The notes beneath the pieces are model-generated. The model was not told the DNA's origin, did no database searches, and worked only from the letters and a program-made list of their open reading frames with translations. A DNA stretch of 64,000 nucleotides. Origin: a virus (taxonomy: Duplodnaviria > Heunggongvirae > Uroviricota > Caudoviricetes). Location: the IMG/VR virus record IMGVR_UViG_3300029641_000003. One strand, written 5' to 3'. Below, one piece after another: positions 13,371-13,404 of this stretch; position 1 is the stretch's first letter; each line of letters opens with the position of its first letter. A program made the position numbers and the translations under genes.

Positions 13371-13404
13371 CTAACTTTAAATAATGCCAATTATTTAAAG
13401 TTAG
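13371..13404. other. lox-type site: 13-bp inverted arms around 8-bp spacer
   Basis: CTAACTTTAAATA-ATGCCAAT-TATTTAAAGTTAG; arms are perfect reverse complements; about 150 bp upstream of cre. Confidence 0.85.

Follow-up and report, generated by a model that had tools for sequence, protein, structure and literature searches.

Beside a gene for a Cre-like tyrosine recombinase, the viral DNA analysed here carries an inverted repeat that resembles loxP, and the question it raises is whether this is a recombination site of new specificity or one that is already known. Here "the window" means the whole stretch of DNA that was analysed, which is 64,000 nucleotides long. The original prediction held that the repeat was a novel lox-type site, orthogonal to loxP, which had co-evolved with the diverged Cre next to it. 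Our comparisons with annotated and published sequences indicate that it is almost certainly the rox site of a Dre allele, carried on a D6-like (P1-related) Escherichia phage-plasmid. Such a site is already known: Dre/rox was found in phage D6 in 2004, and the original description of the system is reportedly that of Sauer and McDermott from that year.

The palindrome itself is real and not a chance match, because it is single in the window and absent from both shuffled and simulated sequence. Its pattern occurs once in the window, even with three mismatches allowed, and in none of 100 shuffles. Of perfect inverted repeats whose arms reach 13 nt or more and whose gap does not exceed 10 nt, the window has two, this one being the longest, and 40 first-order Markov simulations produced none. 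The two 13-nt arms are perfect reverse complements (CTAACTTTAAATA-ATGCCAAT-TATTTAAAGTTAG at window 13371-13404), as had been predicted, but the "perfect 13-8-13" architecture ascribed to the site holds for those arms and not for its overall symmetry. This extends inward to 15-nt arms, 100% complementary, around a 4-nt asymmetric core, GCCA (i.e., 15-4-15). The 13-8-13 reading is therefore best regarded as a functional analogy to loxP rather than something given by the symmetry; under that analogy, the core lies within an 8-bp region (13384-13391, ATGCCAAT) that would be the counterpart of the loxP spacer. Published work describes rox as 14-4-14 (PMC4777119). The outermost C/G pair (position 1) is outside the defined 32-bp rox and is asymmetric in D6 (C...T). 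The parts of the site are as follows:

13371-13404, no strand: extended perfect palindrome with 15-nt arms and 4 nt between them, the outermost C/G pair being lineage-specific

13372-13403, no strand: rox, the 32-bp Dre recombination target (TAACTTTAAATAAT-GCCA-ATTATTTAAAGTTA), which agrees with both AY753669.1 and the published rox at 32/32 positions

13386-13389, plus strand: asymmetric core GCCA, the sole non-palindromic bases, which give the site its direction

The second perfect repeat within those arm and gap limits lies at 21949-21986. Its 14-nt arms are AT-rich (ATATGTTAGAAAA...) and stand 10 nt apart; the repeat overlaps the stop codon of a pmgS-like ORF (21985-23193, minus strand) and is unlike a GC-rich terminator.

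A megablast search with positions 12100-13700 against phage records led to Escherichia phage D6, in which the features under the match are annotated as "dre: tyrosine recombinase", "c1" and "region of crossover (rox) site for Dre recombinase". The last of these is a misc_recomb feature of AY753669.1, and window 13372-13403, which reads TAACTTTAAATAATGCCAATTATTTAAAGTTA, matches it at 32/32 positions. PMC4777119 lists this 32-mer as wild-type rox, and the window contains one copy. The general features of a Cre-type target are all present, i.e., a pair of inverted arms that flank a short, asymmetric crossover region, beside a recombinase gene. Site sequence, Dre orthology and specificity residues each place the locus in the Dre/rox system of the phage D6 type. 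What survives of the original prediction is thus its core, a lox-type site beside a cognate Cre homologue and heterospecific to Cre/loxP, which is borne out by the match to the published Dre/rox pair; the word "novel" has to go, given 32/32 identity to the known rox of D6 and a recombinase 94% identical to Dre.

The evidence from the protein agrees with that from the site. The recombinase gene is:

12191-13219, minus strand: dre allele, encoding a 342-aa Cre-type tyrosine recombinase

Its start codon is 152 bp from rox, which lies upstream. The product aligns without gaps to D6 Dre (AAV84949.1), the two having the same length of 342 aa and 322/342 residues in common (94%), and it is 41% identical to P1 Cre. 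Against Cre chains in PDB it gives E = 4e-72 over residues 22-341, and its Pfam domains, PF00589 Phage_integrase (63.6 bits) and PF02899 SAM-like N-terminal (25.8 bits), both score above their cut-offs. In an alignment with Cre, the catalytic residues R175, K202, H290, R293, W316 and Y325 are invariant, and they agree with the Dre residues listed in PMC4777119. The protein thus has the make-up of a Cre-type tyrosine recombinase, a catalytic R-K-H-R-W(H)-Y domain together with an N-terminal SAM-like DNA-binding domain.

The positions that discriminate between rox and loxP are K43, R259 and G263 in Cre, replaced by R, P and K in Dre (PMC4957104, PMC7438526). Both the window protein and D6 Dre carry R44, P259 and K263. 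The 20 substitutions that separate the two Dre proteins fall mostly in the N-terminal 102 residues, and none affects a catalytic residue or one of these three positions. The exact window protein is already in RefSeq, where WP_021551777.1 of NZ_CP085065.1 is 100% identical to it and is annotated merely as "tyrosine-type recombinase/integrase". All 17 matches to 12191-13219 (minus strand) in the PDB copy searched were chains of Cre or the Cre-derived Tre, and no experimental structure of Dre or Dre-rox was found in that copy by sequence search with the window Dre.

The surrounding genes tell the same story. The order dut-orf-orf-dre-rox-c1-pacB-pacA is common to the window and the D6 immC region, with c1 placed as in AY753669 and MF356679:

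13601-14638, plus strand: c1 prophage repressor homologue, with 80.6% aa identity over 345 aa to D6 C1

14676-16184, minus strand: pacB terminase gene, collinear with D6 pacB and of the same size (1509 nt)

16184-17548, minus strand: pacA terminase gene, collinear with D6 pacA and of the same size (1365 nt)

Pfam gave no matches for C1, PacA, PacB or the two small ORFs upstream of dre, so these five are named by collinearity with the annotated D6 records.

Collinearity with the complete D6 genome extends over approximately 52 of the window's 64 kb, at 72-96% DNA identity, and on that basis the window can be classed as a diverged D6-like phage-plasmid of Escherichia, not D6 itself. Across the 1.6 kb tested, circular Escherichia coli and E. 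marmotae plasmids of ~90-94 kb match it at 99-99.8% identity, NZ_CP085065.1 (99.7%) among them. D6-like elements are a recognised subgroup (P1g2) of the P1-like phage-plasmids (PMC10879196). For membership of the P1/D6 type we considered immC with c1, pacAB, the immI C4 RNA, darB, and head and tail genes, and the collinear genome places the window in this P1-related (D6-like, "P1g2") group. A C4 antisense RNA lies at 33871-33956 (minus strand; RF01695, 69.6 bits) with an a1/b1 target region at 34025-34077 (minus strand; RF03163), and these point to immunity control of the P1 immI type in this D6-like element.

Several other features of the replicon deserve a record. All that is left of the Cin invertase of D6/P1 is a 29-aa remnant (44398-44484), and the window has a single tail-fibre gene and one tail-fibre assembly gene (44716-45138 and 45170-48439, both minus strand); it appears that this lineage has lost the invertible host-range segment known from D6/P1, or has something else in its place. 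A CAT-anticodon tRNA (19455-19530, minus strand) was called as Met and could be of the Ile2 type. It is common to the window and D6 (MF356679, L029 6084-6159), where it is unannotated, and the strand that ARAGORN gives for the D6 tRNAs is the reverse of the annotated one. The 191-aa protein encoded at 18425-19000 (minus strand) has a C-terminal Tad2-like domain (Thoeris anti-defence 2, PF11195/DUF2829), and its RefSeq label in the near-identical plasmid is "MW1434 family type I TA system toxin"; that plasmid has a further ORF with a DUF2829 annotation, whose counterpart in the window is at 10121-10783. Four segments have no blastn counterpart in D6 (3506-6012, 8176-9350, 38153-39119 and 53910-55387), and Pfam had no match for ORFs 3897-4391, 5141-5956 and 8221-9327. 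NZ_CP085065.1 has a type I restriction-modification system upstream of phd/doc.

With two diverged copies of the locus in hand, window and D6, one can see what has changed and what has been kept. Between the two dre genes, 104 codons differ synonymously and 20 non-synonymously (dS 0.675, dN 0.030), and a dN/dS of 0.044 points to strong purifying selection on dre. In the intergenic DNA, 126/152 positions are identical to the left of rox and 41/111 (including gaps) to the right, with 32/32 in rox itself.

We then consider how widely the site occurs. The original prediction proposed looking for it in other P1-like genomes, and that search speaks against novelty: the site is present in D6, in many Escherichia, Salmonella and Shigella plasmids, and in 23 IMG/VR contigs. 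Dre and rox had already been noted in E. coli genomes other than D6 (PMC4957104). The scan of IMG/VR required the rox arms and left the central 8 bp free; in 21 of the 23 contigs the centre is canonical, whichever way it is oriented. The remaining two have unchanged arms and a variant centre. In contig L011, the centre is ATCCCCAT (CCCC core; 12405-12436), beside a 99.4% D6-type Dre, and in contig L020 it is ATGCTAAT (GCTA core; 3706-3737), beside a recombinase ~70% identical to Dre. Both centre variants may be incompatible with wild-type rox. A Dre-type gene adjoins rox wherever the recombinase side is present in the contig (20/23), and, apart from the L020 homologue, the contig alleles are either of the D6 type (99-100% to D6 Dre) or of the window type (99.7% to window Dre; L008 and L019).

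These comparisons also bear on the predicted co-evolution of recombinase and site. It is apt for the old split between Cre/loxP and Dre/rox, which is already documented. It does not describe events within the lineage, where 20 residues have changed and the site is the same at 32/32 positions. That rox is unchanged while dre has diverged, and that the arms in L020 are the same, argues that the site has been held constant within the Dre/rox clade and has not co-evolved with the protein.

The ~100 bp to the right of rox (13405-13500) are unrelated between window and D6, which are otherwise 80-88% identical on both sides. Among relatives the right flank takes at least three forms (TAAAAT..., GAAATC... 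and GAAATTTAGG...), L012 differing here from both the window and D6, and the left flank is conserved. We considered whether rox might be a mosaic junction between lineages and rejected this, because similarity resumes ~110 bp further right and c1, pacB and pacA are ~80% identical; the right flank is treated here as a short spacer that is hypervariable, which does not argue for exchange at rox.

Two other explanations of the site need to be weighed. One keeps the original claim, in which a diverged Cre has co-evolved with a lox-type site that is truly new and has a specificity of its own. If loxP were the only reference, this would look reasonable, as 13 of 34 positions differ from loxP and the recombinase is merely 41% identical to Cre. 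However, the sequence is identical to a rox that is both annotated and published, which refutes novelty outright; the recombinase is 94% identical to Dre and shares its specificity residues, and the exact protein has a RefSeq entry. We consider this explanation barely credible.

The other would make the repeat a hairpin-type regulatory signal (a terminator or repressor operator), or a relic beside an inactive recombinase. A perfect, hairpin-forming repeat in an intergenic position between divergent genes is what such a signal could look like, but the 15-bp stem contains just two G-C pairs and there is no terminator call at the site. A relic fits poorly with a recombinase that is full length, has all of its catalytic residues and appears to be under strong purifying selection. 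Moreover, the identical sequence has been shown experimentally to be a Dre target (PMC4777119, PMC4957104), which counts against signal and relic alike and makes this explanation very improbable. The preferred reading, a rox site served by the Dre allele next to it, accounts for both site and protein, and none of the evidence speaks against it.

A separate matter is whether rox has a second function, as a promoter-like sequence overlaps it:

13363-13390, minus strand: putative sigma-70-like promoter overlapping rox, an 11/12 consensus match that points toward dre

Its -35 hexamer, TTGGCA (13390-13385), is in the rox centre, and after a 16-nt spacer its -10 hexamer, TATAAT (13368-13363), falls three bases outside the left rox arm. 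The -10 hexamer is at the same position in 25/25 aligned rox-bearing sequences (the window, D6 and the 23 contigs), including L020, which has kept it although its flanks have otherwise diverged. In P1, the annotated promoters P4cre and P2coi adjoin lox and read through. Such a dual-function element would have rox carrying the dre core promoter, with rox-bound Dre repressing its own transcription, and the near-consensus hexamers, their spacing, their orientation toward dre, the conserved -10 and the P1 parallel are all consistent with it. Comparable matches number two in the 64-kb window, compared with a simulation mean of 0.8, i.e., about one expected per 64 kb. However, this is a consensus match alone, of a kind that the scan tool warns does not evidence function, and an AT-rich palindrome favours chance hexamer matches. 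In addition, the -35 is degraded in both natural centre variants (TGGGGA in L011 and TTAGCA in L020). A repressing dual element of this sort is therefore unlikely in our view, and it seems quite unlikely that rox doubles as the core promoter of dre in such a way that Dre occupancy would autoregulate recombinase synthesis. We found no report of a promoter in rox in the searchable literature, with the original 2004 paper outside that search. Were the promoter active, the centre variants of L011 and L020 would alter both recombination compatibility and dre expression, and it would also matter wherever rox is placed upstream of genes in bacteria.

As rox, the site would be expected to work as follows. 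One Dre monomer would bind each inverted-repeat arm, and two rox sites with four monomers would form a synapse. Tyr325 would then cleave at the edges of the central region, with strand exchange via a Holliday junction, the asymmetric GCCA core would set the orientation of the site, and accessory proteins would not be required. D6 Dre recombines rox in both bacteria and mammalian cells with no accessory factor (PMC4957104, PMC12331466, PMC7438526), and Dre/rox and Cre/loxP do not cross-react (PMC4957104, PMC7438526, PMC12331466). We infer from its similarity to D6 Dre that the window allele likewise recombines rox, and not loxP, without accessory proteins.

In mutational screens, compatibility between rox sites was governed by positions 2 and 7 within the 8-bp centre (PMC4777119). 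By analogy, this supports a loxP-like crossover region with cleavage at the equivalent positions; the cleavage positions in rox were themselves inferred and not mapped directly (PMC4777119). Sequencing of recombination junctions in B. subtilis agrees with exchange inside the central region (PMC12331466).

The biological role can be suggested by analogy with P1, whose record names Cre "cyclization recombinase". The P1 Cre/lox system serves both the cyclization of terminally redundant virion DNA and the resolution of plasmid multimers. Transferred to the window element, these roles would have Dre/rox circularise terminally redundant phage DNA after infection and resolve multimers of the plasmid prophage, allowing proper segregation. 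A pac site of the P1 type (clustered TGATCR hexamers) was not found in pacA, which has one such hexamer (16864), and there was no enrichment of the hexamer across the window. Because pacA has no TGATCR cluster, the pac-to-rox geometry that underlies P1 cyclization is unconfirmed here.

As for what the locus offers, Dre/rox has been an established orthogonal tool since 2004 (PMC4957104, PMC7438526, PMC12331466), used as the partner of Cre/loxP in mouse, zebrafish, CHO-cell and bacterial engineering, so the discovery value is small. The residual value is modest and lies in natural variation. A natural Dre allele with 20 substitutions and an unchanged rox, along with a ~70% homologue that has the same arms, could inform which Dre residues tolerate change, and two natural variants of the rox centre exist.

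Among known systems, the Dre/rox of D6 (AY753669, MF356679) is the closest. Site, recombinase length, catalytic and specificity residues, neighbouring genes and their order are the same, as is the kind of replicon, a P1-related plasmid prophage. The differences are the 20 aa substitutions in Dre, the base to the right of rox (G in the window and T in D6, which is why the window arms extend to 15 nt), the unrelated ~100 bp beyond it, and a replicon that has diverged (72-96% DNA identity; 80.6% aa identity in C1) and lost the Cin invertase.

P1 Cre/loxP (NC_005856) has the same general design, with inverted arms around an asymmetric centre (34 bp if read as 13-8-13), a site between the recombinase gene and c1/pac, and a recombinase with the same tyrosine-recombinase fold and R-K-H-R-W-Y set. 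The loxP sequence used for comparison, ATAACTTCGTATA-ATGTATGC-TATACGAAGTTAT, was verified against the ends of the P1 record. The 13 positions of 34 at which the window site departs from it include four of 13 in the arms (1, 8, 9 and 10, position 1 being the outermost base), a count that corrects the five originally given. The spacer does differ, as predicted, at five of the eight central positions, and loxP has eight asymmetric central bases whereas rox has four. By sequence, then, the window site is lox-like but would not be classed as loxP, and in published tests Cre does not recombine rox, nor Dre loxP (PMC7438526). In P1, moreover, cra separates lox from cre, and coi/imcAB separates lox from c1; the window lacks both.

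A third system, Panto/pox of Pantoea sp. aB, was compared by publication. Its pox arms are one nucleotide off the rox arms, and Panto also recombines rox (PMC4957104). It resembles the present case in that rox-type arms are common to well-diverged recombinases, as with the L020 protein at ~70% identity to Dre, and it differs in the identity of Panto to Dre (52%) and in the centre of pox, where 4/8 positions depart from rox (PMC4957104).
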